A stretch of DNA of 32,000 nucleotides from Kineococcus radiotolerans SRS30216 = ATCC BAA-149. Lineage in GTDB: Bacteria > Actinomycetota > Actinomycetes > Actinomycetales > Kineococcaceae. How positions within the stretch are numbered: position 1 is the first letter of the stretch; every line of letters starts with the position of its first letter. The position numbers and the translations under genes were made by a program. Positions 4,965 to 25,863 of this stretch are shown here, piece after piece. The DNA is taken from contig NC_009664.2 in assembly GCF_000017305.1 (NCBI RefSeq), positions 1,980,001-2,012,000 of the forward strand, written 5' to 3'. The notes beneath the pieces are model-generated. The model worked only from the letters and a program-made list of their open reading frames with translations. It did not search any database and was not told where the DNA came from.

Positions 4965-4969
4965 GGGGG

Positions 4970-8252: not shown

Positions 8253-9149
8253 TCAGAAGGTGACGATGCTCAGCGCGCCCTTGCCGTAGCGGGTCACCTC
8301 GACCGTGAGGTCGAGACGGCTGCCGGTGCGGGTCGCCCAGTCGGCCACGTCGGGGCGCAGGGCCTCGCCGGGCGCGTAGCTGGCGTACAGCTTCAGGTGC
8401 GCGGCACCCTCCACGTTGAACAGCGACGCCATGATGTTGAGCACCTCCTTGGCGTTGACCGTGAGGTTCTCCGGCAGCTCCCGGTCCTCGATGGCGGCTT
8501 CGCTGGCCCCGGGGGGCAGCAGGCCGATCGAGGCGCCGGCGTGGGCGGCCAGCGCGAAGTCGAAGACCACGACGGCCTTGGACTTCAGGTGGTCGTCCAC
8601 GTACAGCCCGACCAGCGACCCGGGCTTGCCGCCGACCGGCACGGGCCGGCCGTCGGCGAGCTCGACGTCGCGGTTGAGCAGGTCGGAGAGCAGGTTGCGG
8701 ATGGCGAGGTTGGAGGGCAGCGGGTTGACCTCGAACTTCACCTCCCCCTGCGCGACGGCCGTCGTGGCGGTGGCCGGGCCGGCGTCGCCGCCGAGGACCG
8801 GGGCCAGCGCCGCGGCGAACTGCTCGGGGGTGAAGGGCTTGGCGATGAGGAAGAGGGCGCCGGCGGCGGCGGCCTTCTCCCGCATCTCCTCCGAACCCTC
8901 CGACGTCACGAAGCCGAACGGCACGTCGAGCCCGGAACCGCGCAGGTTCTGCAGCATCTCGTAGCCGCTGGCCTCGGGCATGTTCCAGTCCGAGAGGACG
9001 ATGTCGGGGTTCTCCTTGCGGACCGCGTCGAACCCCTCCTTGCCGTTCTCGGCCTGGACGACGTCGACCCAGTCGAACCCCGCCTGGCGCAGCGTGCGGA
9101 TGACGATCTGCCGCATGACGCGGCTGTCGTCGACCACCAGGGCCTTCAC
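8253..9149 (-). CDS. CheY-like receiver fused to a CheX/CheC-like C-terminal domain
   Basis: GTG 9149 follows GGAGGGG. REC motifs: VVDDSR, LSDWNMP, KPF. The C-terminal half aligns by eye with the neighbouring CheX (VVVFDF/IVTVSV, NAKEVLNIMAS/DSLGEVANIVGG) and keeps E-x2-N, but not the D/S at -4. Confidence 0.75.
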   Translation of the reverse strand: MKALVVDDSRVMRQIVIRTLRQAGFDWVDVVQAENGKEGFDAVRKENPDIVLSDWNMPEASGYEMLQNLRGSGLDVPFGFVTSEGSEEMREKAAAAGALFLIAKPFTPEQFAAALAPVLGGDAGPATATTAVAQGEVKFEVNPLPSNLAIRNLLSDLLNRDVELADGRPVPVGGKPGSLVGLYVDDHLKSKAVVVFDFALAAHAGASIGLLPPGASEAAIEDRELPENLTVNAKEVLNIMASLFNVEGAAHLKLYASYAPGEALRPDVADWATRTGSRLDLTVEVTRYGKGALSIVTF

Positions 9150-9153
9150 GGGA

Positions 9154-9657
9154 TCACCCCTCCTGCGTCTGGTCGCCGGCGGCGGCCAGCCACACCTCGA
9201 ACGTCAGCCAGTGACCCTGCCAGCTCCCGTCCAGGCGCGCCGCGAGGCGGCCGGAGGAACCGTGCAGGGGCTTGGCCGTCGAGACGACGGGCAGGCCGAG
9301 CGGGCCGGCGTCGGGGACGAGCGCCTTGATGTTGCCGCCGACGATGTTGGCGACCTCGCCGAGGGAGTCGTAGACGTCCTCGTCGGTCAGGTCGCCGTCC
9401 TCCTGCAGCAGCGCCGCCGACAGCGGCACGGCCGCCGCCTTCTCGACGCTGACCGTGACGATGCCCGGGCGGCCGCCGGAGATCGTCACCGAGGCGCAGA
9501 GGATGTCGCCCTCGATGTCGTGCGGGTCGAAGGAGGGGGCGAGGTAGTCGGTGTGGGCGAAGTACGACGCCCACATCTGGTCGACGATCTGCTCCAGGGC
9601 TTCGTCCTCGACGTAGTCCATGGCGACGTCGTGGCCGTTCTCGATGGTGTCGGTCAC
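9154..9657 (-). CDS. cheX: CheX-type chemotaxis CheY-P phosphatase
   Basis: GTG 9657 overlaps the cheY TGA (GTGA). The D-x3-E-x2-N core DSLGEVAN (9346-9369) of the CheC/CheX/FliY family is present. About 167 aa. The alternative start is ATG 9621. Confidence 0.8.
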   Translation of the reverse strand: MTDTIENGHDVAMDYVEDEALEQIVDQMWASYFAHTDYLAPSFDPHDIEGDILCASVTISGGRPGIVTVSVEKAAAVPLSAALLQEDGDLTDEDVYDSLGEVANIVGGNIKALVPDAGPLGLPVVSTAKPLHGSSGRLAARLDGSWQGHWLTFEVWLAAAGDQTQEG

Positions 9658-10865: not shown

Positions 10866-12125
10866 TCACCACCTGCCTTGGGAGGGACGGGCCGCGGGAG
10901 CGGCGGGGCGGGACGCCGGCGGACGCGCCGGCGGGGTGCTGCGGGTGGGGCTGGTCGAGACGGTGGGGCGGGTGCTGCCGGCCGCCGGGGGGCGCGCGGC
11001 CGGGGGGTGCGGGGCCGACGCGGTCCGGGCGCCCGGCCCGAGCCGGCGCTGGATCGCGTCGGCGATGGCCGACAGGGGCAGGACCTCGTCCGCGATGCCC
11101 TCGCGGGTGACGGCACCGGGCATCCCCCAGACCACCGAGGTGGCCTCGTCCTGGGCCAGGACCTGGCCGCCGGCGGCCGCGATGTCCTTGCAGCCGAGCT
11201 TGCCGTCCGACCCCATGCCGGTGAGGATCACCGCGAGGAGCTCCCCGCCGAAGGCGGCGACCGCCGAGCGGAGCATGACGTCCACCGCCGGTCTGCAGAA
11301 GTTCTCGGCAGGTCCCTGGTGCAACTTGATCACCATCTGCGGACCGCGCCGGGCGACCTCCATGTGGAAGTCGCCGGGGGCCACGTAGACCGTCCCGGCC
11401 ACGACGGGTTCGCCGTCGGTGGCCTCGACGACGCGCAGGGCGCTGCTCTTGTCCAGCCGCTGGGCGTAGAGGCGGGTGAAGACGGGGGGCATGTGCTGGG
11501 TGACCAGCACGGGCACGCCGAGGGTGGCGGGCAGCTTCGCCAGGACCGCCGAGAGGGCCTCCGGGCCCCCGGTGGAGGAGCCGATGACGAGCGCGCGGGG
11601 GGTCTTGGCCGCACCGGTGGGGGTGCGGGTGGTCACCGGCGTCGCCGGGCGGGCCGGGGTCGCGGCGGGTGCGCTGGGCGCGGGCGCCGCGGGGGGCGCC
11701 GCGAGGTGGCCCAGGTGCGGCACGAGGGCCTTGATCTTGGGGATCAGCTGCTGGCGCACCGACTCCATCGACTCCGCGACGCTGCCCACGTTGGCGGGCT
11801 TGGTGACGTAGTCGGAGGCGCCGGAGGACAGCGCCTCGAGGGTGGCGGTGGCGCCGCGCTCGGTGAGGGTGGAGAACATGATGACCGGCAGCCGCCGGTC
11901 GATCTTGCGGATCTCCTTGATCGCCTCGAGCCCGTCCATGACGGGCATCTCGATGTCGAGGGTCACGACGTCGGGCTTGAGCTGGAGGATCTTCTCCAGG
12001 GCGAGCTTGCCGTTGGCGGCCGTGCCGACGACCTCGATGGCCGGGTCGGAGGCGAGCACGTCGGTGACCAGCCGCCGGACGACGACGGAGTCGTCGACGG
12101 TGAGCACCTTGATGCGTTGACTCAC
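10866..12125 (-). CDS. cheB: Chemotaxis methylesterase/deamidase CheB (REC + CheB_methylest) with a Pro/Ala-rich C-terminal tail
   Basis: GTG 12125 (VSQRIKVLTVDD). REC shown by DIEMPVMDG. Esterase motifs: IGSSTGGP, TQHMP, LTGMGSDG, WGMP. A 57-aa low-complexity tail runs to the stop codon 10866-10868, 1 nt before the cheR ATG. Confidence 0.93.
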   Translation of the reverse strand: MSQRIKVLTVDDSVVVRRLVTDVLASDPAIEVVGTAANGKLALEKILQLKPDVVTLDIEMPVMDGLEAIKEIRKIDRRLPVIMFSTLTERGATATLEALSSGASDYVTKPANVGSVAESMESVRQQLIPKIKALVPHLGHLAAPPAAPAPSAPAATPARPATPVTTRTPTGAAKTPRALVIGSSTGGPEALSAVLAKLPATLGVPVLVTQHMPPVFTRLYAQRLDKSSALRVVEATDGEPVVAGTVYVAPGDFHMEVARRGPQMVIKLHQGPAENFCRPAVDVMLRSAVAAFGGELLAVILTGMGSDGKLGCKDIAAAGGQVLAQDEATSVVWGMPGAVTREGIADEVLPLSAIADAIQRRLGPGARTASAPHPPAARPPAAGSTRPTVSTSPTRSTPPARPPASRPAAPAARPSQGRW

Positions 12126-13803: not shown

Positions 13804-13833
13804 CCCCCCACGCTACCGGGAGGGCGGCGGGGC

Positions 13834-14763
13834 TCAGGCGGGGCCGAAGGCCGCTTCCCACGGGCGCAGGAGGACGGCGCGGGCGTCGGAGGACAGCAGG
13901 TCGGCGACGACCTCGGCGTGCACGACCCCGCTGACGACGTTCCACAGGCCCTCGGCCCCGTCGGCGGCGTCGAGGCCCCCGGCGCGGAAGGCGCGGACGG
14001 CGAGCAGCTGGGCGACGGCGGCGGTGCGCACGCGGTCGGACAGGTGAACCGCCCAGGACGCGTCGTGCACCGCACCCGCCCACTCCCCCGCACCGGGGCG
14101 GCTGGCGGCAGCCACGGCGCGCAGGCAGGCGCGGTCGGTGCCGTCGAGGCGGCGCAGGCGGTCCAGGACCCGCTCGACCCCGGCCTGGGCCTCCCCGAGC
14201 CCGGTCGGGCGCTCGGGCAGCGGGGCGAGGTCGCGGCAGGCCTGCAGGTAGGGGTGGGCCAGGACCCGGCGGGCGTGGTCGGGCAGCCGGTCGCCGAGGT
14301 AGGCGGAGACGGCGGCGTCGGCGAGGACGTCGGCGGCGCGCCCGGCGTCCTCGGTGCGCAGCCGGGGCCCGCCCTCCAGCGGCGCGGACCAGGTCCAGTC
14401 GAAGACGTCGTGGTGCACGAGGCGGACCAGCGCGTCGGCGTCGGCGATGGTGCTGGTCTGCAGGACCCGCACGACCCCCCGCTCGACCCGGGCCCCGGAG
14501 ACCTCGTCGGCGAAGTCGTCGCGGGCGAGGCCGTTGGCCACCTGGTGCAGGACGTCGGTCAGCTGGGGGACGCCGTCGCAGGCGGTGCGCACCGCGTCCC
14601 AGGCGGCCGTGCGGGTGGCCGGGTCGTGGCGGGCGGCGAGGACGTCGATCTCGCGCGGGCCGCAGTCCAGGGCCCGGAGCAGGACCTCCGCGGCGGAGTC
14701 GCCCGCGGGCAGCCGCACGAGGTCGAAACCCAGCACGGGGGAGCTCACCAGGGAGTAGTGCAT
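13834..14763 (-). CDS. Hypothetical protein (309 aa)
   Basis: ATG 14763 lies 9 nt after GGAGG. Balanced amino-acid composition and G/C-rich third positions. The N-terminal 46 codons of ORF 13834..14901 were discarded. Confidence 0.6.
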   Translation of the reverse strand: MHYSLVSSPVLGFDLVRLPAGDSAAEVLLRALDCGPREIDVLAARHDPATRTAAWDAVRTACDGVPQLTDVLHQVANGLARDDFADEVSGARVERGVVRVLQTSTIADADALVRLVHHDVFDWTWSAPLEGGPRLRTEDAGRAADVLADAAVSAYLGDRLPDHARRVLAHPYLQACRDLAPLPERPTGLGEAQAGVERVLDRLRRLDGTDRACLRAVAAASRPGAGEWAGAVHDASWAVHLSDRVRTAAVAQLLAVRAFRAGGLDAADGAEGLWNVVSGVVHAEVVADLLSSDARAVLLRPWEAAFGPA

Positions 14764-14963: not shown

Positions 14964-15881
14964 GTGGACCAGCAGCCCGACGACGAGCCGCACCGCCCCC
15001 CGACCGAGCCCGCCGGGACCGGGCCCGCCGGAGCCGGGGCGGGCCAGCGGGTGGGCCAGCGGGTGGGTGCGGCGCCGGACCCGGGCGGCTGGGCCTCCTG
15101 GCTGCTGGTGGCCGTCGCCGCGGCCCCGGTGCTGGTGCTGGGCGAGGTGGCCCGCCGCCACCTCGGCGGCGGCCTGGACGCGCGCTACTTCGGGGCCACC
15201 GCCGGCTCCGGCGAGGACGCCGTCGGCCTCGGCCTCGGCTGGTCGACCCGGTTCAGCCTGCTGTGGACGGCGGTGCCGGTGCCGGAGGTGCTGCTGGCGG
15301 CGCTGGCGGGTCTGCTCGTGCTGTGCGCGCTCGTCGTGGCCGGGCGTCCCGCCTGGCTGGTCCCCGGCCGGTGGGGCCGCCGCGCCGCCGCCGGTGTCGC
15401 CGCGCTGGCCGCGGCGGAGAGCCTGATCGCGCTGCTCACCCTGGCCGGGCGGGCCGACGACTCCGAGCGGGAGGGGTTCGGGGGGCTGTCGATCACCTAC
15501 TACGTCCCCCCCACCGGGCGGTTCCCCGAGATCGCCCCCGTCCTCGCGCTGCTCGCGGTGACGACGGTCCTTCCGGCGCTCGCGGCCCTCGTGCTGTGGC
15601 GGGACGGCGACGGCGCCCCGGCGGGACGCGGGGACGACGACGACGTCGATGAGGTCGATGAGGTCGATGAGGTCGATGAGGTCGATGAGGCCCCCGGCGC
15701 CGACGGGGACGACGCCGGGGACCTCGGTGCCACCCCGGCCGTGACGACGCCCACCGCCGCTGCCCCCGGGACGCCCGCCGCCCCGCCCGCGGTGGCGGGG
15801 CGCGGACCGGGCCCGGGCCCCGGGATCCCCACCGTCCCGGCCCACGAGCTCGACGCCTACCGCCGCCCCCGGGTGCCGTGA
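14964..15881 (+). CDS. Hypothetical membrane protein with acidic (VDE)5 repeat tail
   Basis: About 4 hydrophobic helices, then an acidic/Pro-rich tail. The competing minus-strand ORFs are R/G/P-rich frame artefacts. Confidence 0.65.
   Translation: MDQQPDDEPHRPPTEPAGTGPAGAGAGQRVGQRVGAAPDPGGWASWLLVAVAAAPVLVLGEVARRHLGGGLDARYFGATAGSGEDAVGLGLGWSTRFSLLWTAVPVPEVLLAALAGLLVLCALVVAGRPAWLVPGRWGRRAAAGVAALAAAESLIALLTLAGRADDSEREGFGGLSITYYVPPTGRFPEIAPVLALLAVTTVLPALAALVLWRDGDGAPAGRGDDDDVDEVDEVDEVDEVDEAPGADGDDAGDLGATPAVTTPTAAAPGTPAAPPAVAGRGPGPGPGIPTVPAHELDAYRRPRVP
15645..15689 (+). repeat. Perfect 9-bp tandem repeat GTCGATGAG x5 (in-frame VDE x5)
   Basis: Five identical head-to-tail copies, read directly from the sequence. 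Confidence 0.95.
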
Positions 15882-15894
15882 GCCCCGGGACGTC

Positions 15895-16239
15895 GTGCGG
15901 CGCGGGGCTCCCCCGCGCCGCCCCGGGTACGGTGCGGGCGTGACGCAGCGCGGGGGCAGCGGGGACTACGTCGAGGGTGAACGGGTCTTCGCCCCGCCGC
16001 GGGGCAGCTTCGACCCCGACTGGGTCGCGGGCCTGGTGCTGGACCGCTCGGCGGCTGCGCCGGCGGTGTCCCGCAGCGCCCTCGCCGGCGCGGCCCACGC
16101 CGACTGGACCCGGCGGACCGGGGGCGCGACGGCGCCGGAGCGGGTGCGCGCGCTGGAGGAGGACGGGTTCCCCCCGGCCACCGCCCGCGACGTGGTGGGG
16201 GCCGTGGACGACTTCACCGCCGCCTACGGGGTCGGGTGA
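15895..16239 (+). CDS. Hypothetical small protein
   Basis: Nearly every third codon position is G/C in this frame. Start is uncertain (GTG 15895 or GTG 15940) and there is no clear SD. Confidence 0.55.
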   Translation: MRRGAPPRRPGYGAGVTQRGGSGDYVEGERVFAPPRGSFDPDWVAGLVLDRSAAAPAVSRSALAGAAHADWTRRTGGATAPERVRALEEDGFPPATARDVVGAVDDFTAAYGVG

Positions 16240-16303: not shown

Positions 16304-16744
16304 TCAGGCCGCGGTGACCGCGCCCTCGATCTCGAGCGCCTTGTCGACGTCGAGGACGAGCAGCAGCGCGTCGTCGAGCTTGTAGGCGCCGCGGATCAGT
16401 TCGCGGATCGGCCCGGACAGCGTGTCCGGCGGCGGCTCGAAGGTGGAGTCGGTGACCTCGATGACGCCCCCGATGGAGTCGACGAGCAGGCTCCACACCT
16501 CCTCGGCGGCGCGGACGACGACGTTCATCGCGACCTTGCCGTCCTCGCGGTCGGGCATGTTCAGCCGGCGGCGCAGGTCCAGCGCGGTGACGACCTGACC
16601 GCGCAGGTTGATCAGGCCGGCGACGGCCCGCGGGGCCAGCGGCGCGGGGGTCCGCGGCTGCTCGGTGAGCACTTCCTGGACCCGCCGGACCTCGACACCG
16701 AAGAGGTGCCCGGCCAGGTGGAACGTGGCGTACTGCGTGGACAC
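16304..16744 (-). CDS. cheW: Chemotaxis coupling protein CheW
   Basis: 146 aa. FHLAGHLFGVEVRRVQEV...GLINLRGQVV...LVDSIGGV...LLLVLDVDK is the typical CheW domain. GTG 16744 lies 1 nt after the cheA TGA. Confidence 0.93.
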   Translation of the reverse strand: MSTQYATFHLAGHLFGVEVRRVQEVLTEQPRTPAPLAPRAVAGLINLRGQVVTALDLRRRLNMPDREDGKVAMNVVVRAAEEVWSLLVDSIGGVIEVTDSTFEPPPDTLSGPIRELIRGAYKLDDALLLVLDVDKALEIEGAVTAA

Positions 16745-16745
16745 G

Positions 16746-19214
16746 TCAGACCCCCAGTCGCATCGAAGCTGCAGCGAGCTCGTTCTGAGCCTGCTCGGAG
16801 AAGAAGTTCGGGTCGGCGGCGAGGATCGCGGACCGGACGTCGAGGAGCTCGGTCACCCGGTCGCGGATGACCGCGGAGCCGACCAGACCGGCGTCGTCGA
16901 TGTCGCTGTGCGCGTCCTGGCCGGAGACGATGTCGACGATCTCGTCGACGACGATCGCGACGGAGCGGCCGCGGGCGGAGTACACGACACCCGGCAGGGA
17001 CGTGACCTCCTCGCCGCCGTAGGACGAGCGCGAGCCGCCACCGAGGTGGTTGGCCAGCCGGACCAGCGGCAGGATCTCGCCGCGGTAGCGGACGACCTCG
17101 CGGCGCCCGACCCGCTCGATGGAGTCGGTCTTGAACTCCTCCAGGCGGGTGACGACGTCCAGCGGGATCGCGACCCGGCGGTTCCCGCCGAGCCCGACGA
17201 CCAGCAGGCGCTGCCCGTCGCCGCTGGCGGCCTGGGCCTCGGCGGCGTCGTCGTTCACGTGCTCCAGGCCGTCGGAGCGCATGGTGCGGCGGGCCAGGGA
17301 CTGCACGTCGAGGATGAGCGAGACCCGCCCGTCGCCGAGGATCGTGGCGCCGGCGTAGGCGCCGATCGCCTTCAGCGCCCCGGAGAGCGGCTTGACGACG
17401 ATCTCCTCGGTGTCCAGGACGCGGTCGACGAGCAGGCCGAAGCGGCGCCCGTCGCACTCCAGGACGGCGATGACGAGGTTGGTGGGGAGCTCCACGTCGG
17501 CGGGGCGCTTGAGCTCCAGCGCCTCCTCGAGGCGGATCAGCGGCAGCAGCGCACCGCGCAGGCGGTACACCTTGGCGCCGCCGACGTCCTCGATGGCCTT
17601 GCTCATGCGCTCGGTGTCGAGGCTGACCAGTTCCAGCAGGTTGACCTGCGGCATGGCGTAGCGCTGGCCGGCGCACTCGACGGTCAGGGCCGGGACGATC
17701 GCCAGGGTCAGCGGGATCCGCAGCCGCCACACGGTGCCCTGGCCGACGACGGACTCGACGTCGACGGAGCCGCCGATGCGCTCGATGTTCGTCTTGACGA
17801 CGTCCATGCCGACGCCGCGGCCGGAGACGTTGGTGACCTTGGCCGCGGTGGAGAAGCCGGGCAGGAACAGGAACTGCAGGATGTCGTTGGGGGTCAGCGA
17901 CTCGAGCTTGGCCGCGGAGACCAGGCCCTTCTCGACGGCCTTGGCGCCGATGATGGTCGGGTCGATGCCCTTGCCGTCGTCGCGGATCTCGACGACGACC
18001 TGGCCGCCCTCGTGGGCCGCGCGCAGCTTCAGGGTGCCGACCTCGTTCTTGCCGGCGGCGGTGCGGACCTCGGGGGACTCGATGCCGTGGTCGACCGCGT
18101 TGCGGACGATGTGGGTCAACGGGTCCTTGACCGCCTCGAGGAGGGTGCGGTCGAGCTCGGTGTCGCCGCCCTCCATCTCGAGCTTGATCTTGCGGTTCAG
18201 CATGTTGCCGAGGTCGCGGACGACGCGGGGCAGCTTGGACCACAGGTGGTCGATGGCCTGCATGCGGGTGCGCATGACCGATTCCTGCATCTCGCTCGCG
18301 ACGAGGTTCAGGCGGTGGCAGGCGCGGGTGAGGTCCTCGTCGCGCAGGGCGCCGGCGCGCTGCAGGATCTGGTTGCGGGCGAGGACGAGCTCACCGGCCT
18401 GGCGGACCAGGGACTCCAGCAGCTCCACGTCCACGCGGATCGTCGACTCGGCCGCGGAGGCCTTCTCGGCGGGAGCACCGGGGGCGGGAGCGCCGGGGGC
18501 GGGGGCGGCGTGCGCGGCGGGCGCGGGGACGGCGACGGGCTCGGGGGCGACCTCGACGACCGGGGCGACCTCGACCGGCGCGGCGGCCTCGACGGGGGCG
18601 GGCGCGGCGACGGGCTCGGGGGCGACCTCGACGACCGGGGCGACCTCGACCGGCGCGGGGGCGGCCTCGACGACGGGCTCGGGAACGACCTCGGCGACCG
18701 GCGCGGGAGCGACCTCGACGGGCGCGGGGGCGGTCTCGGCGACCGGCGCGGGCGCCGGCGCGGCGGCCGGGGCGGGCTCGGAGACGACCTCGACGCCGGC
18801 CCCGTCGGACGCCGGCAGGACCGGCACCTCGCCGTCGAGCACGGCGCGGATGGCCGCGACGACCGCGGCGACCTCGACACCGTCCTCGGTGTGCGACTCC
18901 TCGATCTTCGTCAGCAGCAGGCGGATGGTGTCGACCATGCGCAGCAGGACGTCGGTGGTGACCGGCGTCATGACGAGCTGGCCGTCGCGCAGCCGGGCCA
19001 GCAGGTTCTCACCGACGTGGGCCACGGCCTCGAGGCGGGAGAACGCCAGGAAGCCGGAGGTGCCCTTGATCGTGTGGATGGTGCGGAACACGCTCGCGAG
19101 CAGCTCGCGGGAGCCGGGCTGCTGCTCCAGCGCGACGAGGTCGGAGTCCAGCTGGTCCAGGTTCTCGTAGCTCTCGACGAGGAACTCCTGGACGATCTCG
19201 TCCATGTCGTCCAC
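16746..19214 (-). CDS. cheA: Chemotaxis histidine kinase CheA (P1 / repeat linker / P3 / P4 / P5 / extra CheW-like domain)
   Basis: P1 Hpt motif FRTIHTIKGTSGF. P3 is STIRVDVELLESLV. P4 is HIVRNAVDHGIE, DDGKGI, GRGVGMDVV. Two consecutive CheW-like regions follow. Start is GTG 19214 (5 nt after GGGAG), ATG 19205 or GTG 19226. Confidence 0.93.
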   Translation of the reverse strand: MDDMDEIVQEFLVESYENLDQLDSDLVALEQQPGSRELLASVFRTIHTIKGTSGFLAFSRLEAVAHVGENLLARLRDGQLVMTPVTTDVLLRMVDTIRLLLTKIEESHTEDGVEVAAVVAAIRAVLDGEVPVLPASDGAGVEVVSEPAPAAAPAPAPVAETAPAPVEVAPAPVAEVVPEPVVEAAPAPVEVAPVVEVAPEPVAAPAPVEAAAPVEVAPVVEVAPEPVAVPAPAAHAAPAPGAPAPGAPAEKASAAESTIRVDVELLESLVRQAGELVLARNQILQRAGALRDEDLTRACHRLNLVASEMQESVMRTRMQAIDHLWSKLPRVVRDLGNMLNRKIKLEMEGGDTELDRTLLEAVKDPLTHIVRNAVDHGIESPEVRTAAGKNEVGTLKLRAAHEGGQVVVEIRDDGKGIDPTIIGAKAVEKGLVSAAKLESLTPNDILQFLFLPGFSTAAKVTNVSGRGVGMDVVKTNIERIGGSVDVESVVGQGTVWRLRIPLTLAIVPALTVECAGQRYAMPQVNLLELVSLDTERMSKAIEDVGGAKVYRLRGALLPLIRLEEALELKRPADVELPTNLVIAVLECDGRRFGLLVDRVLDTEEIVVKPLSGALKAIGAYAGATILGDGRVSLILDVQSLARRTMRSDGLEHVNDDAAEAQAASGDGQRLLVVGLGGNRRVAIPLDVVTRLEEFKTDSIERVGRREVVRYRGEILPLVRLANHLGGGSRSSYGGEEVTSLPGVVYSARGRSVAIVVDEIVDIVSGQDAHSDIDDAGLVGSAVIRDRVTELLDVRSAILAADPNFFSEQAQNELAAASMRLGV
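18531..18680 (-). repeat. 75-bp tandem duplication inside the CheA P1-P3 linker
   Basis: A 53-bp string (ggcgacgggctcgggggcgacctcgacgaccggggcgacctcgaccggcgcgg) occurs identically at 18531 and 18606. It encodes PVEVAPVVEVAPEPVA twice, with a 25-aa period. Confidence 0.8.
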
Positions 19215-19283
19215 GTGGACTCCCACTTCTCGCGTCGGGGGCGGCCCCGGGCGGGACCACTGTGCGTCTCTTGCTCTCCGTGC

Positions 19284-19310
19284 TCATCGGCACCGGGGCG
19301 GCAAAGCTGA
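19284..19310 (-). promoter_or_regulatory. Putative sigma-28 (FliA/WhiG)-type promoter of cheA-cheW
   Basis: Minus strand reads TTTCAG-N15-GCCGATGA (-10 matches GCCGATAA in 7/8 positions), about 70 nt upstream of the cheA start and downstream of the cvnD hairpin. Confidence 0.4.
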
Positions 19311-19342
19311 AACGCCCGGGCCGGCGGGCCGCGGGCCGGACG

Positions 19343-19384
19343 CGCGAGAGGCCGGCCCCCCGGGTGGGGGACCGGCCTCTCGCG
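19343..19384 (-). terminator. Long hairpin immediately after cvnD
   Basis: CGCGAGAGGCCGG (19343-19355) pairs with CCGGCCTCTCGCG (19372-19384). An inner CCCCC/GGGGG stem lies between them. It starts 13 nt after the cvnD stop. Confidence 0.55.
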
Positions 19385-19396
19385 GGTCGGGCGGCG

Positions 19397-20029
19397 TCAG
19401 ACGCCGGTGTTGAGGCGGGCGAGCGCCGTCTGCACGAGCGTGATGAGGCTGTGCTTGGTCGCGGCCTTGCTGCGCGCGTCGGTGTAGACGAGCGGGACGT
19501 TGTCGGGGACGCCGAGGGCCTCGCGCACGGAGTCGAGGTCGTGCTGGGCGACGCCGTCGAAGCAGTTGACCGCGACGACGAACGGGATCCCGCGGGACTC
19601 GAAGTAGTCGACGGCCGGGAAGCACTGGTCGAGGCGGTCGGTGTCGACGAGGACGACGGCACCGATGGCGCCCTTGACCAGGTCGTCCCACATGAAGAGG
19701 AAGCGGTCCTGGCCGGGGGTGCCGAAGAGGTACAGCCACAGGTTGCCCGGCAGGGCGATGCGGCCGAAGTCCATGGCGACGGTGGTCGAGGTCTTGCGGT
19801 CGGAGTTCAGGCCCGCGTCGTCGACCCCGACCGAGTGCTCGGTCATGGCGGCTTCGGTGCGCAGCGGCTCGATGTCGGAGATCGAGCCGATGAAGGTCGT
19901 CTTGCCGACGGCGAACCCGCCGGCGACGACGATCTTGACGACGGTGGGCGGTGCCTGAGGAGCCGTTCCGGCGGGCGCTCCGGCTCCGGCGGGGCTGACG
20001 TCAGAGCGAGGAAATGCCATTGAGAACAC
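19397..20029 (-). CDS. cvnD: Conservon small GTPase (CvnD-type, MglA/Ras-like ATP/GTP-binding protein)
   Basis: P-loop GGFAVGKTT, TTVAMDFGRI, LFGTPGQDRF, VLVDTDRL and VAVNCFDG match the CvnD family pattern. Start is GTG 20029 or ATG 20020; it overlaps the cvnC 3' end. Confidence 0.85.
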   Translation of the reverse strand: MFSMAFPRSDVSPAGAGAPAGTAPQAPPTVVKIVVAGGFAVGKTTFIGSISDIEPLRTEAAMTEHSVGVDDAGLNSDRKTSTTVAMDFGRIALPGNLWLYLFGTPGQDRFLFMWDDLVKGAIGAVVLVDTDRLDQCFPAVDYFESRGIPFVVAVNCFDGVAQHDLDSVREALGVPDNVPLVYTDARSKAATKHSLITLVQTALARLNTGV

Positions 20030-20396
20030 TCTCCAGGACGCTGATGGTGGTCGCGGGTTGGGGGGCGGAGGTCATCGTGAGGCCGTGGACGCGGACCTTC
20101 CCCGAGGAGGAGAGGTCGCTCACCACGACACGCACGACTCCGACCGGCAGGTGGACGTGCGCGGACAGTTCCGCGATCGACAGGTAGGACTTCTTGGTGA
20201 GTTCGAGGATCTTGCGCCGTTCCGGGGTCATCCCGACGTCCGGTTCGGCCAGGGCCTCCACGAGCGCCTCGACCGGGAGCTCGACCCCGCTGGCGCGGGT
20301 CCGGCCACCGGTGACGGTGTACGGGCGGACGGTGAACTCCTCGACGTCCTGGTCGTCGTCGTCGGACCAGAGGTCCGCGCTACCAGGTGCTGTCAC
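20001..20396 (-). CDS. cvnC: Conservon DUF742 protein (CvnC-type)
   Basis: VRPYTVTGGRTR...LPVEALV...TPERRKILEL...LSIAELSAHVHLPVGVVRVVVSDL is the typical DUF742 signature. Confidence 0.85.
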   Translation of the reverse strand: MTAPGSADLWSDDDDQDVEEFTVRPYTVTGGRTRASGVELPVEALVEALAEPDVGMTPERRKILELTKKSYLSIAELSAHVHLPVGVVRVVVSDLSSSGKVRVHGLTMTSAPQPATTISVLESVLNGISSL

Positions 20397-20402
20397 GTCG
20401 CG

Positions 20403-20849
20403 TCACCACCGGGAGGCGACCGGCGCGGAGGTGGGCAGGTTCGCCCGCATCTCCGACACCAGCTGCGGGGTCAGGACGGTCTCGGCGCGCTGGACCAGCA
20501 TCGCCATCTCGTAGCCGATGAGCCCGACGTCGCAGCCGGCCTCGGCGGAGACGGCCAGGACCGACCCGTCGGAGATGTTGACCAGGAAGAAGAACGAGTC
20601 GTCCATCTCGATGATGGCCTGGCGCACCTCCCCGGAGTCCAGCTGGCGGGCGGCGCCGCGGGCCAGGCTCGAGACGCCCGAGACGATCGCGGCGAGCTGG
20701 TCGCCGGACTCCCGGTCGAGCTTGTCGGACATGGCCATCAGGAGACCGTCGGCGGAGACGACGACGGTGTGGGTGACGCCGGGGACGCTCTTGACGAAGT
20801 TGTCGAGGAGCCAGCTGAAGTCGGCGGCCTCGGAGCTGAGCACGGTCAC
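20403..20849 (-). CDS. cvnB: Conservon Roadblock/LC7 (MglB-like) protein (CvnB-type)
   Basis: FSWLLDNFVKSVPGVTHTVVVSADGLLMA...DQLAAIVSGVSSLARGAA...VRQAIIEMDD...VLAVSAEAGCDVGLIGYEMAMLV is the typical Roadblock/LC7 pattern. Confidence 0.88.
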   Translation of the reverse strand: MTVLSSEAADFSWLLDNFVKSVPGVTHTVVVSADGLLMAMSDKLDRESGDQLAAIVSGVSSLARGAARQLDSGEVRQAIIEMDDSFFFLVNISDGSVLAVSAEAGCDVGLIGYEMAMLVQRAETVLTPQLVSEMRANLPTSAPVASRW

Positions 20850-20936
20850 AGTGGTGTTCCTCTTCCATGGCGGGGCGGTCGGGTCGGCTGTTGGTCGGGG
20901 TGGGGCGGGACCCGGAGGAGGTTCCGGGGGTTCGGG

Positions 20937-23900
20937 TCAGGCGTCGCCATCAGCACCGCTCCCGGTGGGGGCGTCGCCCTCGGTGCGGCCGCGGGACACG
21001 CCGGCCTGGAAGCCGGACAGCATCGAGCGGACGTCGGCGGGGGCGCGGCGCTGGCGGTTGGCCGCGGTCGAGCGGACCGGGGCGGGCTTGGCCGCGGCCG
21101 CCGTGGCACCCGCCTGGCGGCGGATCAGCGGCGCGGACCCGGTGCCCCGGGCGGGGGTGAAGTTCTGGCCCTCGGTGAGGGCGCTGAGGGCGTCCGCGGC
21201 CAGCGCGCTGCGCTGGCGCAGGGCCTCCCCGACAGTGCGGGTCTGGGCGGGCACCTCGACGACCGGGGCCGGGGCCTCGGGGGCGGGGGCCGGGACCTCC
21301 GCGGCCGGGGCCGGAGCCGCGGCGACGGGCGCCTCGACGACCGGGACCTCGACCGCGGGGACCTCGACGACCGGGACCTGCGGGGCCCGGGCGACCGGGG
21401 CCTGGACCACGGGGACCTCGACGACCGGGACCACGGGGGTCTCGGCCACCGGGACCTCGGCCACGGGGGCCTCGGCCGCGGGGACCTCGGCGACCGGGCC
21501 CTGCCGGCCGGCGCGGCCGGCCTCGAGCGCGTCCAGCGCCGAGCCCTCGACGGTCGCCGGCTCCTCCCGCTTGCTGCGGGAGGTCCAGAACGCCTCGGCG
21601 GCGGTCTTGGGCGGGGACACCGTGTCGCGGACCTGGCGGGGCTTCTTGCCGGCGCGCGGCAGGATGTCCTGCGCCGCGGCCAGGGCCGTGGGGGCCTCGA
21701 CCTTGCGCTCGCGCTTGGGCATCGCCGAGGTGGCGGTGGCCGGCGCGGTCACCGGCTTCCAGTCCTCCTCGGCCGCGGGAGCCGCGGCCGGGGCCGGAGC
21801 CGGCGCCGGGGCGGAGGCGTCGACCTTGGCCTGCGCCTGAGCGGTGCGGCGACGGGTCGGCAACTGCCGGCCCTCCACCTTCGCCGTGGGCGAGGAGGCG
21901 TTGACCTCCGAGCTCGCCGCCGCCTGGGCCGCGGACTCCTGCAGCGTCGCCGACAGCGCGTCGCCCAGGCCCGCGGCCGCCAGCGGGTTGCTGACGATCG
22001 TGCTGGCCCCGGGGGCCGGGGTGCGGGTGGGCAGGGCGGCGGGGGCCTGCGGCGCGGCGGACGGGGCGGCGTCCTCGGGCAGGGCCGAGACGGGGCCGTC
22101 CAGGGCGGGCAGACCGCTGTCGAGGGCCGCGAGCTCCGGCTCACCGGCCTTGACCGAACCCGGGGTGAACAGCGCCGCGGGCAGGACGAGGGTGACGGTG
22201 GTGCCGACGCCCTCGGCGGTGTCGAAGTGGACGTCGACGTCGAGGCGGCCGGCGAGGCGGCCGACGACGTAGAACCCGAGGCGCTGGGCGCCGACGAACT
22301 CCGAGGCGCGGCCGCCGGAGATGCGCTGGTGGGCCGCCTCGACCTCCTCGGCGTTCATGCCGAGGCCGGTGTCGCGGATCGTGACCTCGACGCCGCGGTC
22401 GGTCTCGGCGGTGCCGACGACGACGCGGGTGCCGGGGTCGGAGAAGTTCGTCGCGTTCTCGAGGAGCTCGGCGATCATGTGCGAGGCCGACAGGGCGAGG
22501 TGGCCCACGACGGGCGGGTCGGCCTGGAGGGCGAGGTCCACGCGGTCGTAGTGCTCGATCTCCCCGGCCGCGGTGCGGACGACGTCCGACAGCGGCAGCG
22601 GGCGGCGCAGGCGGCGGCCGGTGTTGATGCCGGCCAGGACGAGCAGGGACTCGGCGTTGCGCCGCATCCGGGTCGCGAGGTGGTCGAGGGTGAAGAGGTC
22701 CTCGAGGGTGTCGGGGTTCTCCTCGGTGCGCTCCAGCTGGTCCAGGAAGGCCAGCTGGCGGGCCAGCAGGGTCTGGTCGCGGCGGGCGACGTTGACGAAC
22801 ATCTCGGCGATCGAGGCGCGCAGGGCGGCCTGCTCGCCGGCGATGCGGAAGGTCGTCTCGTTGAGGTCGTTGATGACGTGGGCGACCTCACCGATCTCGT
22901 CGGTGCTCGTGACCTCCAGGGGGCTGAACTCCACCCCGGGGCCCTCGCCGGGGGTCTGCATGCGCTCGACCATGCGGGGCAGCTCGTCGCGGACCGCGGT
23001 GGCGGCGTCGGCGAGGGCGCGCAGGCGGCGGCCGATGTCGCGGGCCACGCGCAGGCCGAAGAGGGTGACGGCGGCGAAGAGGACGAGGGTCCCGACCAGC
23101 AGGGCCAGCGTGCCGGCGAGGGCGCGGGTCGAGGCGGCGTCGGCGCGCTCGGCCACGGTCCCGGCGATCTCGTTGGCGGCGTCCCGGTAGACGGCGATGA
23201 CCTCGTCGGTGGTCTCCTCCCAGCCCTCCTCGGGCAGGGTGGGGACACCGGTGGCGGCGGCGAAGATGTTGCGGTCCTGGGTGAGGAACGCCAGCGACTG
23301 GGTGGCCTGGGAGGCGTTGAGCGCACCGTCGAGGAGCGCGGTGGCGTCGTCGTGGAGGCGGTGGCGGGCCTGCTGCTCGAAGTAGTTCCCCTGCTCGATG
23401 GCGTTGCCGCGCAGGTCGCTCACCGCGGTGTTGCCGTCGCCCTGGACGATGAGGTCGCCGGCGGCCTGCTCGATCGAGAGGGCGTCGACGCGCTTGAGCA
23501 GGTACCCGAAGGCGGCGACGTCGTCGGCCAGCTCGCGGTCGTCGGCCTGCTCGGCGACGGTCACAGTGAGGTCGGTGGCGGCGGAGGACACGGCGCTGTA
23601 GCTGTTCAGCGCCGCGAGCGGGGAGGTGGTGCCGTTGTCGACGGCGGTGCGCGTCTGCGGGAGGGTCTGCCCGAGGGCCCGCTGCACGCTCGCGTAGACG
23701 GAGGCGCTGGAGCCCTCGCTCAGGTCGAGGCCGCTGTCGGCGATGGCCCCGGTCACCGCGGCGATCGCCGCGTCGGTGGCGGCGCGGTCGGCGACGACCT
23801 CCGCCTTCCCCTCCTCGCTCGGGGCGGGCAGGTACTCCAGGGTGCTGCGACGCTCGGTCTGCAGGGCCGTGAAGAAGTCGTTGATCGTCTGCGCGGACTT

Positions 23901-24041
23901 CGCGTAGGCGGCCAGGTGGCGGCGCTCCGTGGTGGACGCCACGTTCTGCGCCGCCGTCGCGATGACGGCGACGAGCAGCAGCACGAGGGGTACCACCAGG
24001 AGGACCGCGAGCTTCGCTCGGATGCTCAGGTTCCGCAGCAT
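20937..24041 (-). CDS. cvnA: Conservon sensor-kinase-like membrane protein (CvnA-type: TM / NIT-like / TM / HAMP / HATPase_c / long disordered tail)
   Basis: ATG 24041 lies 5 nt after GGAAGG. N-terminal helix LRNLSIRAKLAVLLVVPLVLLLV, a periplasmic NIT-like region, a second TM and HAMP. ATPase boxes AELLENATNFS, RDTGLGM, GFYVV. The tail is a 409-aa Ala/Pro/Val/Glu-rich region. The upstream 452 codons of ORF 20937..25397 were discarded. Confidence 0.85.
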   Translation of the reverse strand: MLRNLSIRAKLAVLLVVPLVLLLVAVIATAAQNVASTTERRHLAAYAKSAQTINDFFTALQTERRSTLEYLPAPSEEGKAEVVADRAATDAAIAAVTGAIADSGLDLSEGSSASVYASVQRALGQTLPQTRTAVDNGTTSPLAALNSYSAVSSAATDLTVTVAEQADDRELADDVAAFGYLLKRVDALSIEQAAGDLIVQGDGNTAVSDLRGNAIEQGNYFEQQARHRLHDDATALLDGALNASQATQSLAFLTQDRNIFAAATGVPTLPEEGWEETTDEVIAVYRDAANEIAGTVAERADAASTRALAGTLALLVGTLVLFAAVTLFGLRVARDIGRRLRALADAATAVRDELPRMVERMQTPGEGPGVEFSPLEVTSTDEIGEVAHVINDLNETTFRIAGEQAALRASIAEMFVNVARRDQTLLARQLAFLDQLERTEENPDTLEDLFTLDHLATRMRRNAESLLVLAGINTGRRLRRPLPLSDVVRTAAGEIEHYDRVDLALQADPPVVGHLALSASHMIAELLENATNFSDPGTRVVVGTAETDRGVEVTIRDTGLGMNAEEVEAAHQRISGGRASEFVGAQRLGFYVVGRLAGRLDVDVHFDTAEGVGTTVTLVLPAALFTPGSVKAGEPELAALDSGLPALDGPVSALPEDAAPSAAPQAPAALPTRTPAPGASTIVSNPLAAAGLGDALSATLQESAAQAAASSEVNASSPTAKVEGRQLPTRRRTAQAQAKVDASAPAPAPAPAAAPAAEEDWKPVTAPATATSAMPKRERKVEAPTALAAAQDILPRAGKKPRQVRDTVSPPKTAAEAFWTSRSKREEPATVEGSALDALEAGRAGRQGPVAEVPAAEAPVAEVPVAETPVVPVVEVPVVQAPVARAPQVPVVEVPAVEVPVVEAPVAAAPAPAAEVPAPAPEAPAPVVEVPAQTRTVGEALRQRSALAADALSALTEGQNFTPARGTGSAPLIRRQAGATAAAAKPAPVRSTAANRQRRAPADVRSMLSGFQAGVSRGRTEGDAPTGSGADGDA

Positions 24042-24164
24042 GTCAACCTTCCGTACGCGATGGTGGGCGGGCGAGTACCGCCCACCGGGGTCGAGCAGAC
24101 TCAGAGGTGATCGGGACGCGGACCGGCGGGGTGAACCCCCGGGGGCCGACAACCCTCGTTCGGC

Positions 24165-24191
24165 CCATCGGCAGCCCGGCGCGTCGCCTGA
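24165..24191 (-). promoter_or_regulatory. Putative sigma-28 (FliA/WhiG)-type promoter of the conservon
   Basis: Minus strand reads TCAG-N15-GCCGATGG about 120 nt upstream of the cvnA ATG. Core and spacing are identical to the cheB and cheA sites. Confidence 0.4.
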
Positions 24192-24225
24192 CCCTCCGGG
24201 GGGTTCGTGTGATCGGGAGCAGGGG

Positions 24226-24864
24226 GTGGAGCGCGTGGAGGACGTCGCCGAGGTGGCCGTCGTGGTGCTCGCGGGCGGCGGGAGCACCCGCTGGGCCGCG
24301 CAGACCGCCCGCGAGGGGCGGGGCGGCGCGGACAAGCTGGCCGCCCCCCTGGGCGGGGTCACCGTCCTGGAGCACCTGCTGCGCGGGCTGACCGGGCGCG
24401 AGGTGGTCCTCGTCGGCCCCGGCGGGATCCGCGAGGACCCGCCCGGCGGCGGTCCCCTCGCCGGGTTCGCCGCCGGGCTGGGGGCGAGCACCGCGGGCGT
24501 GCTCGTCCTGCTGGGGGGCGACCAGCCGTTCGCGGCGAGCGCCGTCCCCCGGCTGCTGGCCGCGCTCGCGCGGGACCCCGCGCTGGACGCCGTCGTCGGG
24601 GTCGACGCGGACGGGCGCCGGCAGCCCCTGCTGTCCGCGCACCGGCGCGAGCGCGCCCGCCGGGTCCTGGACGGGCTGCCGGCCGTGGCGGGCCTGCCGC
24701 TGCGCGAGCTGTTCCGCGGGCGGGTCGGGGAGGTCGCGGTGAGCGCGCGCGAGGCGCTGGACGTGGACGTCCCGCAGGACCTGGCCCGGGCCCGGGCGCT
24801 GCTGCCCGGGCCGCCCGCCGCGCGCGGCGGGGACCCGGAGGCGTCGGGCCCGGGCCCGACGTAG
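24226..24864 (+). CDS. MobA-like nucleotidyltransferase (molybdenum cofactor guanylyltransferase family)
   Basis: VVLAGGGSTRW...DK...G, DPPGGGPLAGF and LLGGDQPF resemble the NTP_transf_3/MobA motifs. GTG 24226 follows GGGAG; the alternative start is GTG 24235. Confidence 0.65.
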   Translation: MERVEDVAEVAVVVLAGGGSTRWAAQTAREGRGGADKLAAPLGGVTVLEHLLRGLTGREVVLVGPGGIREDPPGGGPLAGFAAGLGASTAGVLVLLGGDQPFAASAVPRLLAALARDPALDAVVGVDADGRRQPLLSAHRRERARRVLDGLPAVAGLPLRELFRGRVGEVAVSAREALDVDVPQDLARARALLPGPPAARGGDPEASGPGPT

Positions 24865-24873
24865 TGTCGCGGC

Positions 24874-25863
24874 GTGCGCGCTGTGATCGTCGACCGCCCC
24901 GGGGGCCCCGAGGTCCTCGTCCCCACCGACCTGCCCGACCCGGTGGCCGGGCCCGGTGAGGTGGTGGTCCGGGTCGCGGCCGCCGGGGTGAACCGGGCCG
25001 ACGTGGCGCAGCGGCTGGGGAAGTACCCTTCCCCGCCGGGAGCGCCGCAGAACCCCGGGCTGGAGGTGTCGGGCTGGGTCGAGTCGGCCGGTCCCGGCGT
25101 CGCCCGCGCCGTGGGCGAGGAGGTCTGCGCCCTGCTCGGGGGCGGGGGGTACGCCGAGCGCGTCGTGGTGCCCGCGGGGCAGCTCCTGCCGGTGCCGCAG
25201 GGGGTCGGGCTGGTGGAGGCGGCCGCCCTGCCCGAGGTCGCCTGCACGGTGTGGTCGAACGTGTTCACCCTGGCCGGGTTGCGCCCGGGGGAACTCCTCC
25301 TGGTGCACGGGGGGTCCAGCGGCATCGGCACGATGGCGATCCAGCTCGCCCGCCAGATCGGGGCGCGGGTCGCGGTCACGGCGGGGTCGGCGGACAAGCT
25401 GGAGCGGTGCGCCGAGCTCGGGGCGCAGGTGCTGGTGAACTACCGCGACGACGACTTCGTCGAGCGGGTCCGCGCGTTCGAGCCGGCCGGCGCCGACGTC
25501 GTGCTCGACCTCGTCGGCGCGCCCTACCTGGCCCGCAACCTCGACGTCCTGGCCACCGGGGGGCGGCTGGTGGTGATCGCCACCCAGGGCGGGACCCACG
25601 CCGAGCTCGACCTCGGGCTGCTGATGCGCAAGCGGATCTCGCTGCACGCCACCGGGTTGCGCTACCGCCCGGCCGAGGAGAAGGCGGGGATCGTGGCCAG
25701 CGTCCGCGACCACGTGTGGCCGCTGGTCGCCGACGGCGCGGTGCGCCCGGTCGTGCACGCGACGTTCCCGCTGGCCGAGGCCGCCCGGGCCCACGAGGTG
25801 ATGGAGGGTTCCTCCCACGTGGGCAAGCTGCTGCTGGTCACCGGGGCGACGGCGCCTGCGTGA
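24874..25863 (+). CDS. NADPH:quinone oxidoreductase (zeta-crystallin/MDR family)
   Basis: GEVVVRVAAAGVNRADV, PGLEVSGWV, VHGGSSGIGT, GKLLL: the typical Qor-type medium-chain reductase pattern. Confidence 0.88.
   Translation: MRAVIVDRPGGPEVLVPTDLPDPVAGPGEVVVRVAAAGVNRADVAQRLGKYPSPPGAPQNPGLEVSGWVESAGPGVARAVGEEVCALLGGGGYAERVVVPAGQLLPVPQGVGLVEAAALPEVACTVWSNVFTLAGLRPGELLLVHGGSSGIGTMAIQLARQIGARVAVTAGSADKLERCAELGAQVLVNYRDDDFVERVRAFEPAGADVVLDLVGAPYLARNLDVLATGGRLVVIATQGGTHAELDLGLLMRKRISLHATGLRYRPAEEKAGIVASVRDHVWPLVADGAVRPVVHATFPLAEAARAHEVMEGSSHVGKLLLVTGATAPA

Follow-up and report, generated by a model that had tools for sequence, protein, structure and literature searches.

The 32,000-nucleotide stretch of the Kineococcus radiotolerans genome analysed here (NC_009664.2, positions 1,980,001 to 2,012,000; hereafter the window, whose own numbering is used for all positions) carries a conservon, the four-gene module cvnABCD of a G-protein-like signalling system, immediately upstream of the chemotaxis genes cheA and cheW. 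Our analysis indicates that this is a canonical conservon that is most likely separate from the che transcription units, that it has a predicted promoter of the sigma-28/WhiG1(FliA) type, and that it is most likely induced together with the motility genes, its position next to cheA being in itself no sign of a shared pathway. We give this reading as a whole a probability of roughly 0.68.

A complete conservon upstream of cheA

With a G+C content of about 75%, raw lists of open reading frames (ORFs) in the window consist mostly of spurious frames, and a frame analysis was required; genes were therefore assigned by codon-position G+C content (GC3 frame analysis) and then checked against Pfam. 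According to this analysis, all six focal genes lie on the minus strand.

20937..24041, minus strand: cvnA, 1034 amino acids (aa); Pfam NIT (1.2e-22), HATPase_c (5e-14) and a weak HAMP match
20403..20849, minus strand: cvnB, Roadblock/LC7 protein of the MglB type (Pfam Robl_LC7, 6e-24); presumed GTPase-activating protein (GAP) for CvnD
20001..20396, minus strand: cvnC, Pfam DUF742 (PF05331, 1.4e-28); presumed guanine nucleotide exchange factor (GEF)
19397..20020, minus strand: cvnD, 207-aa small Ras-like GTPase (MglA group 2; Pfam ATP_bind_1, PF03029, 2.5e-27)
16746..19226, minus strand: cheA, with Hpt, H-kinase_dim, HATPase_c and two CheW domains; 100% identical to K. radiotolerans CheA
16304..16744, minus strand: cheW, Pfam CheW (7.6e-32)

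The identities that an initial annotation, made from the letters of the DNA, had proposed for the four cvn genes (a NIT-like/HAMP/HATPase_c sensor, a Roadblock/LC7 protein, a DUF742 protein and a small GTPase) are all confirmed by these Pfam matches. CvnA is made up of a transmembrane segment, the NIT domain (residues 57-296), a second transmembrane segment, the HAMP region, HATPase_c (residues 519-622) and a long Ala/Pro-rich tail. The HAMP match (residues 332-392) is weak, at 19.7 bits under a Pfam cutoff of 25, and the tail carries LPxR motifs in the form of LPTR at residues 670 and 727, a motif typical of conservon kinases according to Wuichet and Sogaard-Andersen (PMC4316618). The start codon of cvnA is an ATG at 24041 with the ribosome-binding site GGAAGG ahead of it; the upstream edge of the module had initially been put at 24191, which proves to be the 5' end of a promoter-like motif (see below) and not the start of cvnA. 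In a PDB sequence search, the best solved relatives of CvnB were Mycobacterium tuberculosis Rv3364c/MfpD (1.2e-34) and Streptomyces coelicolor CvnB5 (3leq), while CvnD and CvnC had no match; NCBIfam yielded no specific names for CvnA-D. CvnD starts at the ATG at 20020, has the P-loop GGFAVGKT at residues 37-44 and is 98-100% identical to 207-aa proteins of Kineococcus. Gaps of 87 nt and 6 nt separate cvnA from cvnB and cvnB from cvnC, respectively, and cvnC overlaps the start of cvnD by 20 nt, an overlap also present in relatives.

The order cvnA-cvnB-cvnC-cvnD on one strand, the architecture of CvnA, the Roadblock CvnB, the DUF742 CvnC and the P-loop of CvnD define the locus as a complete canonical conservon, or actinobacterial G-protein system (AGPS). 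Since NIT plus HAMP is the standard layout of CvnA proteins (PMC13343842), the sensor domain says nothing specific about chemotaxis, and the idea of the initial annotation that it might serve as an extra chemotaxis input finds no support in this generic architecture.

A predicted sigma-28/WhiG(FliA)-type promoter ahead of cvnA, cheA and cheB

Chance would give 0.19 copies of the pattern TCA-N16-GCCGAT in the window; there are three, each on the minus strand and between genes: at 24191-24167 before cvnA, at 19310-19286 before cheA and at 12229-12205 before cheB. The corresponding predicted promoter motifs are as follows.

24165..24192, minus strand: GTCA-N16-GCCGATGG, about 124 nt ahead of the cvnA ATG; 21.4 bits
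19284..19311, minus strand: TTCA-N16-GCCGATGA, 58 nt ahead of the cheA start codon; 27.2 bits
12203..12230, minus strand: TTCA-N16-GCCGATGG, 78 nt ahead of the cheB start codon; 22.6 bits

In every Kineococcus locus, TTCAG-N15-GCCGATG stands ahead of both cheA and cheB. When sites were ranked with a two-block weight matrix trained solely on the cheA and cheB sites of other Kineococcus species, the cheA, cheB and cvnA sites took the first three places in the window, the next site reached 16.8 bits, and shuffled sequences gave 0.38 hits of at least 15 bits. The cvnA site was the only one outside the che genes to exceed 17 bits in 64 kb of scanned strand. In Thalassiella, the same matrix picked out sites directly ahead of flagellin and of flgN-flgK, which marks the motif as a late-flagellar promoter type. 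The Kineococcus motif fits the actinobacterial WhiG1/FliA consensus CTCA-N16-17-GCCGAACT and the WhiG2 consensus T(A/C)AA-N16-GCCGATAA, both as given in the main text of Denis et al. (PMC12871210), as well as the classical consensus TAAA/GCCGATAA (PMC8325347), with a spacing of 16-17 nt and a distance of less than 200 bp from the start codon. FliA is encoded by K. radiotolerans (Krad1625; PMC2587704).

The motif is also found ahead of cvnA in relatives. An exact match to T[CA]A-N16-17-GCCGA[AT] lies at most 250 nt before cvnA in eight of nine orthologous lineages; the background rate of such matches is 0.0165 per 250 nt.

K. radiotolerans: GTCA-N16-GCCGATGG
NBC_00420 clade: GTCA-N17-GCCGATGA
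K. xinjiangensis: TTCA-N16-GCCGAACG
Angustibacter: GTCA-N17-GCCGAAGG
metagenome-assembled genome (MAG) L089: GTCA-N17-GCCGAAGA
locus L093: TAA-N17-GCCGATGC
locus L096: TAA-N17-GCCGATGA
locus L172: CTCA-N17-GCCGATTC

The same pattern was absent before cvnA in all five of the more distant conservons. As a multiple alignment of the regions upstream of cvnA was uninformative past the closest pair, the comparison was based on motifs instead; the spacers being unalignable, the motif is conserved where the surrounding sequence is not. With one mismatch allowed, a relaxed consensus scan of this GC-rich DNA matched at many places by chance and was left out of the evidence. Since the motif precedes cvnA with or without che neighbours, the predicted sigma-28-type promoter would belong to this conservon orthologue wherever it is found. 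The initial suggestion of matching promoters and a common regulon thus gains support from the matrix ranking and from the flagellar sites of Thalassiella: cvnA, cheA and cheB share a motif of the sigma-28/WhiG(FliA) promoter type, and the conservon probably belongs to that regulon. Because all three genes carry it, the conservon is most likely co-induced with the chemotaxis and flagellar genes.

Probable separate transcription units for cvnABCD and cheA-cheW

The cvn genes end 170 bp upstream of cheA on the same strand (cvnD stop to cheA start), and the strong hairpin followed by a sigma-28-like motif that had been noticed in this spacer withstood examination by fold energy, z-score and pattern matching.

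19343..19384, minus strand: GC-rich stem-loop directly after cvnD, with a 19-bp stem and no U-tract; likely terminator or 3'-end stabiliser

The 81-nt stretch containing the hairpin folds with -63.6 kcal/mol (z = -6.3), and none of 200 shuffles folds as well. The hairpin is kept in four Kineococcus sequences, with compensatory changes in five base pairs. A scan for sigma-70 promoters and U-tail terminators returned nothing relevant in the focal region, and the spacers contain no RNA family of Rfam. Downstream of the hairpin comes the cheA promoter motif. In the NBC_00420 clade, a gene for a methyl-accepting chemotaxis protein (MCP), with a promoter region of its own, is accommodated between the hairpin and the cheA promoter. 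In K. gynurae the spacer is only 96 bp long and has no comparable hairpin. As a conserved hairpin divides them and each has its own promoter motif, the arrangement supports separate transcription units for the cvn operon and cheA-cheW (two predicted units, or three where the MCP gene is present). This agrees with the initial view of two adjacent units with matching promoters in place of a single transcript.

Among the lineages examined, the cvn-che adjacency is confined to Kineococcus

To place the adjacency in a wider context, we took the best 80 loci of a CheA scan of GTDB genomes, which were then searched by tblastn with all window proteins, and the best 80 loci of a CvnD scan of metagenomes, 48 of which had at least 1 kb of downstream sequence. 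Both scans are samples and not exhaustive, and the counts hold among the matches listed. The CheA scan listed one Kineococcus genome, that of K. xinjiangensis, and only there were cvnB, cvnC and cvnD found upstream of cheA. Other Kineococcus loci were obtained by exact-protein look-ups, of which the one with K. aurantiacus CvnD returned no record. With CvnD, the adjacency was recovered in Kineococcus sp. NBC_00420, GCM10028916, R86509, K. rubinsiae, K. gynurae and one metagenome contig; altogether, cvnD lies next to cheA, or is parted from it only by the inserted MCP gene, in all seven Kineococcus loci examined.

Outside the genus, tblastn detected no conservon in about 20 other che loci of motile actinobacteria with 7-10 kb of upstream sequence, among them those of Geodermatophilus, Modestobacter, Blastococcus, Klenkia, Actinoplanes, Krasilnikovia, Planosporangium, Planomonospora and Nocardioidaceae. 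Their gene order is cheA-cheW-(309-aa protein)-cheB-cheR-cheY-...-REC, and the block cheA-cheW-x-cheB-cheR-cheY is present without a conservon in Geodermatophilaceae, Micromonosporaceae and others; the cheA locus of Jatrophihabitans has no conservon either. In Thalassiella, a member of the same family, cheA-cheW follow fliA-fliC-fliD-fliS and the conservon is on another contig.

The conservon, for its part, has orthologues in Angustibacter, Thalassiella, a MAG and three metagenome contigs (CvnD 78-85% identical), all with no che genes downstream, and of the best 80 metagenomic cvnD loci, the 48 that extend 1 kb or more beyond the gene contained neither cheA nor cheW. The Angustibacter orthologue (CvnD 81% identical) has the same left flank as the window; Angustibacter is listed as non-motile (PMC7472656). 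The two modules are therefore not co-localised across the lineages that have both, and the conservon is not restricted to flagellated chemotactic organisms, if the listing for Angustibacter applies to the particular strain that carries this orthologue.

What is conserved beside the conservon is its left flank, a divergent pair of genes for a MobA-like nucleotidyltransferase and a zinc alcohol dehydrogenase (adh; window 24229-25863, plus strand). The divergent adh gene accompanies the conservon orthologues of loci L081, L086, L087, L089, L093, L096 and L172, usually together with mobA, which is missing in L093, L096 and L172. The block adh/mobA-cvnABCD occurs without che genes in Angustibacter, Thalassiella and MAG L089 and, with adh only, in L093, L096 and L172. 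The downstream neighbour of the conservon differs between genera and may be cheA, an MCP gene, or a cysK-like, Usp or PIN gene. The adjacency is thus a genus-specific juxtaposition of two independently conserved blocks and not evidence of a shared pathway; as it occurs only in Kineococcus, a direct wiring of the conservon into chemotaxis is unsupported. The synteny survey called for in the initial annotation had a twofold outcome: the adjacency is genus-wide in Kineococcus and not peculiar to this strain, but it is absent from all other lineages examined.

Chemoreceptor genes

No gene in the window has a Pfam MCPsignal match, and tblastn of the window, with an MCP of Kineococcus and the Tsr signalling domain as queries, gave a best E of 0.06, so the absence of MCP genes from the window, already remarked upon, holds. 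An MCP remnant within the cvnD-cheA spacer was considered and is excluded by the size of the spacer and by the tblastn result. Elsewhere in K. radiotolerans, near the flagellar island, the genes Krad1606 and Krad1613 encode MCPs (PMC2587704). In three of the seven Kineococcus loci (NBC_00420, GCM10028916 and R86509), an MCP gene lies between cvnD and cheA.

L081 10789-12381, L082 10782-12374 and L083 10789-12381: inserted MCP gene, 530 aa, with 4HB_MCP/TarH, HAMP and MCPsignal domains

The CvnD of these MCP-bearing species is 98% identical to that of the window, and the promoter region of the inserted gene resembles that of cvnA, with CTGCCGATGR...GAACGAGGG in common. The insertion is absent from K. 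radiotolerans, K. rubinsiae, K. gynurae and K. xinjiangensis. Both Krad1606/Krad1613 (PMC2587704) and the MCP gene at the junction in sister species contradict the earlier proposal that the conservon might act instead of MCPs.

A proposed mechanism and its alternatives

In the reading that we favour, the conservon occupies a family-conserved locus, divergent from the mobA-like and adh genes, which in Kineococcus has the che cluster directly downstream. A sigma-28-family factor (FliA/WhiG1, possibly WhiG2 in non-flagellate relatives) would transcribe it, and the conservon would most likely be on together with the chemotaxis and flagellar genes in the motile dispersal phase, which in K. radiotolerans is that of the zoospore (PMC2587704). 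By analogy with the conservons that have been studied, CvnA would sense an extracytoplasmic ligand via its NIT domain and act via CvnB and CvnC, whose homologues are a GAP and a GEF, respectively (PMC13343842), so as to set the GTP/GDP state of CvnD, which in turn would act on a putative effector. From the work on Mfp and on Cvn8/Cvn9 (PMC13343842), CvnD would be expected to bind and hydrolyse GTP, and CvnA to autophosphorylate.

Several observations weigh against this reading. The promoters of cvnA, cheA and cheB are predicted from sequence alone. The -35 element of cvnA is GTCA and not TTCA; the -10 element is GCCGAA and not GCCGAT in K. xinjiangensis, Angustibacter and MAG L089, with low scores under the Kineococcus che matrix; and the cvnA site of K. 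gynurae is imperfect, a near-match of the form CTCG-N16-GCCGATAG. The hairpin has no U-tract or T-tail, so that some read-through into cheA is possible. The adjacency is retained genus-wide, down to 81% CvnD identity, which leaves room for selection on the linkage. Finally, an effector gene directly downstream of a conservon has a precedent in MfpA of mycobacteria (PMC4316618).

In the alternative put forward by the initial annotation, the conservon would be an input to, or a modulator of, chemotaxis. CvnA would then sense, for example, nitrate or nitrite, and CvnD-GTP or CvnB/CvnC would act on CheA, CheW, CheY or the motor, by analogy with MglA/MglB. The constant adjacency in Kineococcus (7/7 loci), the matching promoter motifs, the cvnA-like promoter region of the MCP gene inserted in one clade and the MfpA precedent all fit such a role, as does the genetic linkage of the Frz chemosensory system to MglA in Myxococcus (PMC4316618). 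Nevertheless, we consider it unlikely, given that no lineage examined outside Kineococcus has the adjacency, including Thalassiella with both modules, that the orthologous conservon is retained in Angustibacter, listed as non-motile, that a conserved hairpin divides the units, that MCP genes are present elsewhere in the genome, and that NIT/HAMP is generic in CvnA. More doubtful still are two specific forms of the idea. In one, the conservon would be a zoospore-stage G-protein module with CvnD as a GTPase that targets the machinery of chemotaxis or of the flagellum, CvnD-GTP binding for example to CheA/CheW arrays or to the motor, and the inserted MCP gene might share its promoter logic. In the other, which is speculative, the conservon would have a direct effect on CheA, supported by no more than the genus-level linkage and the MfpA precedent (PMC4316618).

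The opposite extreme, pure coincidence, strikes us as unlikely too. It would mean a neutral rearrangement, a cvnA motif that is no functional sigma-28-type promoter, and no co-regulation. The restriction of the adjacency to one genus suits it, and so do the deviation of the cvnA motif at the -35 element, the shift of its spacing by 1 nt between close relatives, the imperfect site of K. gynurae and the many chance hits that relaxed consensus searches yield in GC-rich DNA. What argues against coincidence is the rank of the cvnA site, the sole non-che site above 17 bits in the 64 kb of scanned strand, and the recurrence of the exact motif before cvnA in eight of nine lineages in spite of unalignable spacers, at the low background given above.

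Should cvnABCD-cheA-cheW form a single operon, the hairpin would be an RNA-stabilising or processing element within one transcript. The six genes do share a strand, the hairpin is devoid of a U-tract, and the short spacer of K. gynurae (96 bp) is without a comparable hairpin. On the other side, a promoter motif lies between hairpin and cheA in every species, and an MCP gene with its own promoter could be inserted at the junction. Hairpins lacking a U-tail are, moreover, commonly proposed as terminators in high-GC actinobacteria. A single operon accordingly appears rather improbable.

Least probable of all is that the conservon works with its left neighbours, the MobA-like protein and the zinc alcohol dehydrogenase, for instance in nitrate or molybdoenzyme physiology unrelated to motility, a notion prompted by the NIT (nitrate/nitrite sensing) domain of CvnA and by adh, mostly with mobA, being the sole neighbour that is kept throughout Kineococcus, Angustibacter and MAG L089 (L093, L096 and L172 have just adh), but at odds with the divergent transcription of these genes, the lack of mobA in L093, L096 and L172, the generic occurrence of NIT in CvnA proteins (PMC13343842), and the sigma-28-type motif, which suggests a regulon tied to a particular stage.

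AGPS occur widely among Actinomycetota, and little has been described of their outputs and regulation. The adjacency to che genes in Kineococcus, the conserved sigma-28/WhiG-type promoter predicted for this conservon orthologue and the variable MCP insertion appear to be undescribed in the literature searched. In the orthologues of Kineosporiaceae and relatives, the apparently conserved promoter offers a concrete, testable connection of G-protein-like signalling to the motile or dispersal stage, and as such a modest regulatory lead for the AGPS field. The hypothesis leading from conservon to chemotaxis is weak: that the conservon feeds chemotaxis rests on a genus-specific juxtaposition, and adjacency alone is no ground to propagate the idea. 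If CvnD did act on chemotaxis or flagella, this would be the first defined cellular effector pathway of a conservon outside mycobacterial Mfp, and the first G-protein input into flagellar chemotaxis.

The che cluster and the left part of the window

Downstream of cheW, the che cluster continues on the same strand.

13834..14763, minus strand: conserved 309-aa che-cluster protein, encoded between cheW and cheB in many motile actinobacteria
10866..12125, minus strand: cheB, assigned by Pfam, with start codon
10034..10864, minus strand: cheR, assigned by Pfam, with start codon
9654..10037, minus strand: cheY, assigned by Pfam, with start codon
9154..9657, minus strand: cheX (PF13690, 1.3e-10), between cheY and the REC gene
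8253..9149, minus strand: REC protein with a C-terminal domain lacking a Pfam match; last gene of the che cluster

The 309-aa protein has no Pfam or NCBIfam match. It is encoded between cheW and cheB in Kineococcus, Geodermatophilaceae, Actinoplanes, Planosporangium and Jatrophihabitans, and 409 homologues were found at E<1e-5; the matches listed with an organism name are all actinobacterial (e.g. Actinoplanes, Geodermatophilus, Motilibacter), except for one MAG labelled Janthinobacterium lividum. Its AlphaFold2 model is confident and all-alpha, with 16 helices (predicted local distance difference test score 93.5; predicted template modelling score 0.91), and has no match among PDB folds (best E 0.58, template modelling score below 0.2). 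It may be an undescribed accessory protein of actinobacterial chemotaxis.

The two C-terminal CheW-like domains of CheA span residues 513-647 and about 674-798; this extension is common to related CheA proteins of actinobacteria, acidobacteria and planctomycetes, with alignments reaching residue ~810. The REC protein at 8253-9149 has a C-terminal region of about 170 aa without a Pfam match, and this fusion is kept in Actinoplanes and Geodermatophilaceae, the two parts being separate genes in K. gynurae (L086) and Jatrophihabitans (L091). An ORF at 9146..9574 in the longest-ORF listing was rejected as an Arg/Pro-rich spurious frame, the real gene being cheX. The 3' end of cheR contains, roughly 60 nt ahead of cheY, a sub-threshold sigma-28-like site (10099-10128, minus strand; GTGCAGA-N12-GTCGATGAGA, 16.8 bits), either an internal promoter or a chance match. 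In K. radiotolerans and close relatives, the che cluster is interrupted (window 12394-16239): the minus strand encodes a YcnI/DUF1775 protein and a membrane protein of 210 aa, and the plus strand carries a 114-aa ORF and the gene for a membrane protein of 305 aa that has a DEV tandem repeat close to the C-terminus; the order in K. gynurae is the uninterrupted cheA-cheW-x-cheB-cheR-cheY-cheX-REC.

To the left of the cluster, at 9-8227 on the plus strand, lies a set of signalling and exopolysaccharide-like genes. It encodes a histidine kinase truncated at the window edge, a REC protein, a family-2 glycosyltransferase fused to REC, an Hpt protein, an acyltransferase_3 protein, a second family-2 glycosyltransferase and an EAL phosphodiesterase, whose gene is convergent with the che cluster. 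The set may represent a cyclic di-GMP/matrix module beside the motility genes. A tRNA-Ser gene (anticodon TGA) at 4968-5062 on the minus strand is the sole Rfam or ARAGORN match in the window.

Comparison with known systems

A close parallel is provided by the conservons of Streptomyces coelicolor (Cvn1-13, among them Cvn9 and Cvn8; AGPS), which have the same four genes in the same order, the same succession of transmembrane, NIT, HAMP and HATPase_c regions with C-terminal LPxR motifs in CvnA, a Roadblock CvnB, a DUF742 CvnC and a GTPase CvnD, and no response regulator. In Streptomyces, conservons have been linked to aerial mycelium formation and specialised metabolism. In contrast, the host of the module described here is unicellular and zoospore-forming, and its operon has no CvnE or CvnF accessory gene, with a sigma-28/WhiG-type motif ahead of it and cheA-cheW behind it.

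The mycobacterial Mfp conservon (MfpE-D-C-B plus the effector MfpA) supplies, with Rv3364c/MfpD, the closest solved relative of CvnB. There, the Roadblock protein is a GAP, the DUF742 protein a GEF, and the GTPase gene is followed immediately by that of the effector. In Kineococcus, the downstream gene is cheA and does not encode a pentapeptide-repeat protein, and it is set apart by the hairpin and by its own predicted promoter.

MglA and MglB of Myxococcus xanthus likewise pair a Ras-like GTPase with a Roadblock GAP, and act genetically downstream of a Che-like motility pathway (Frz). However, MglA is a group 1 and CvnD a group 2 protein (PMC4316618), the mgl genes of Myxococcus do not neighbour frz, and MglA/MglB control the polarity of gliding and type IV pili and not flagellar chemotaxis.

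Lastly, the predicted promoters invite comparison with the FliA/WhiG regulons of Actinomycetota. In the main text of Denis et al. (PMC12871210), as distinct from its supplementary target list, the conservon is not named among the predicted WhiG targets, nor does that main text mention Kineococcus or Kineosporiaceae. The same text reports chemotaxis genes as predicted WhiG targets in seven actinobacterial families, and the Kineococcus motif TTCA/GTCA-N16-17-GCCGAT/A matches the WhiG1 and WhiG2 consensus sequences that it gives.

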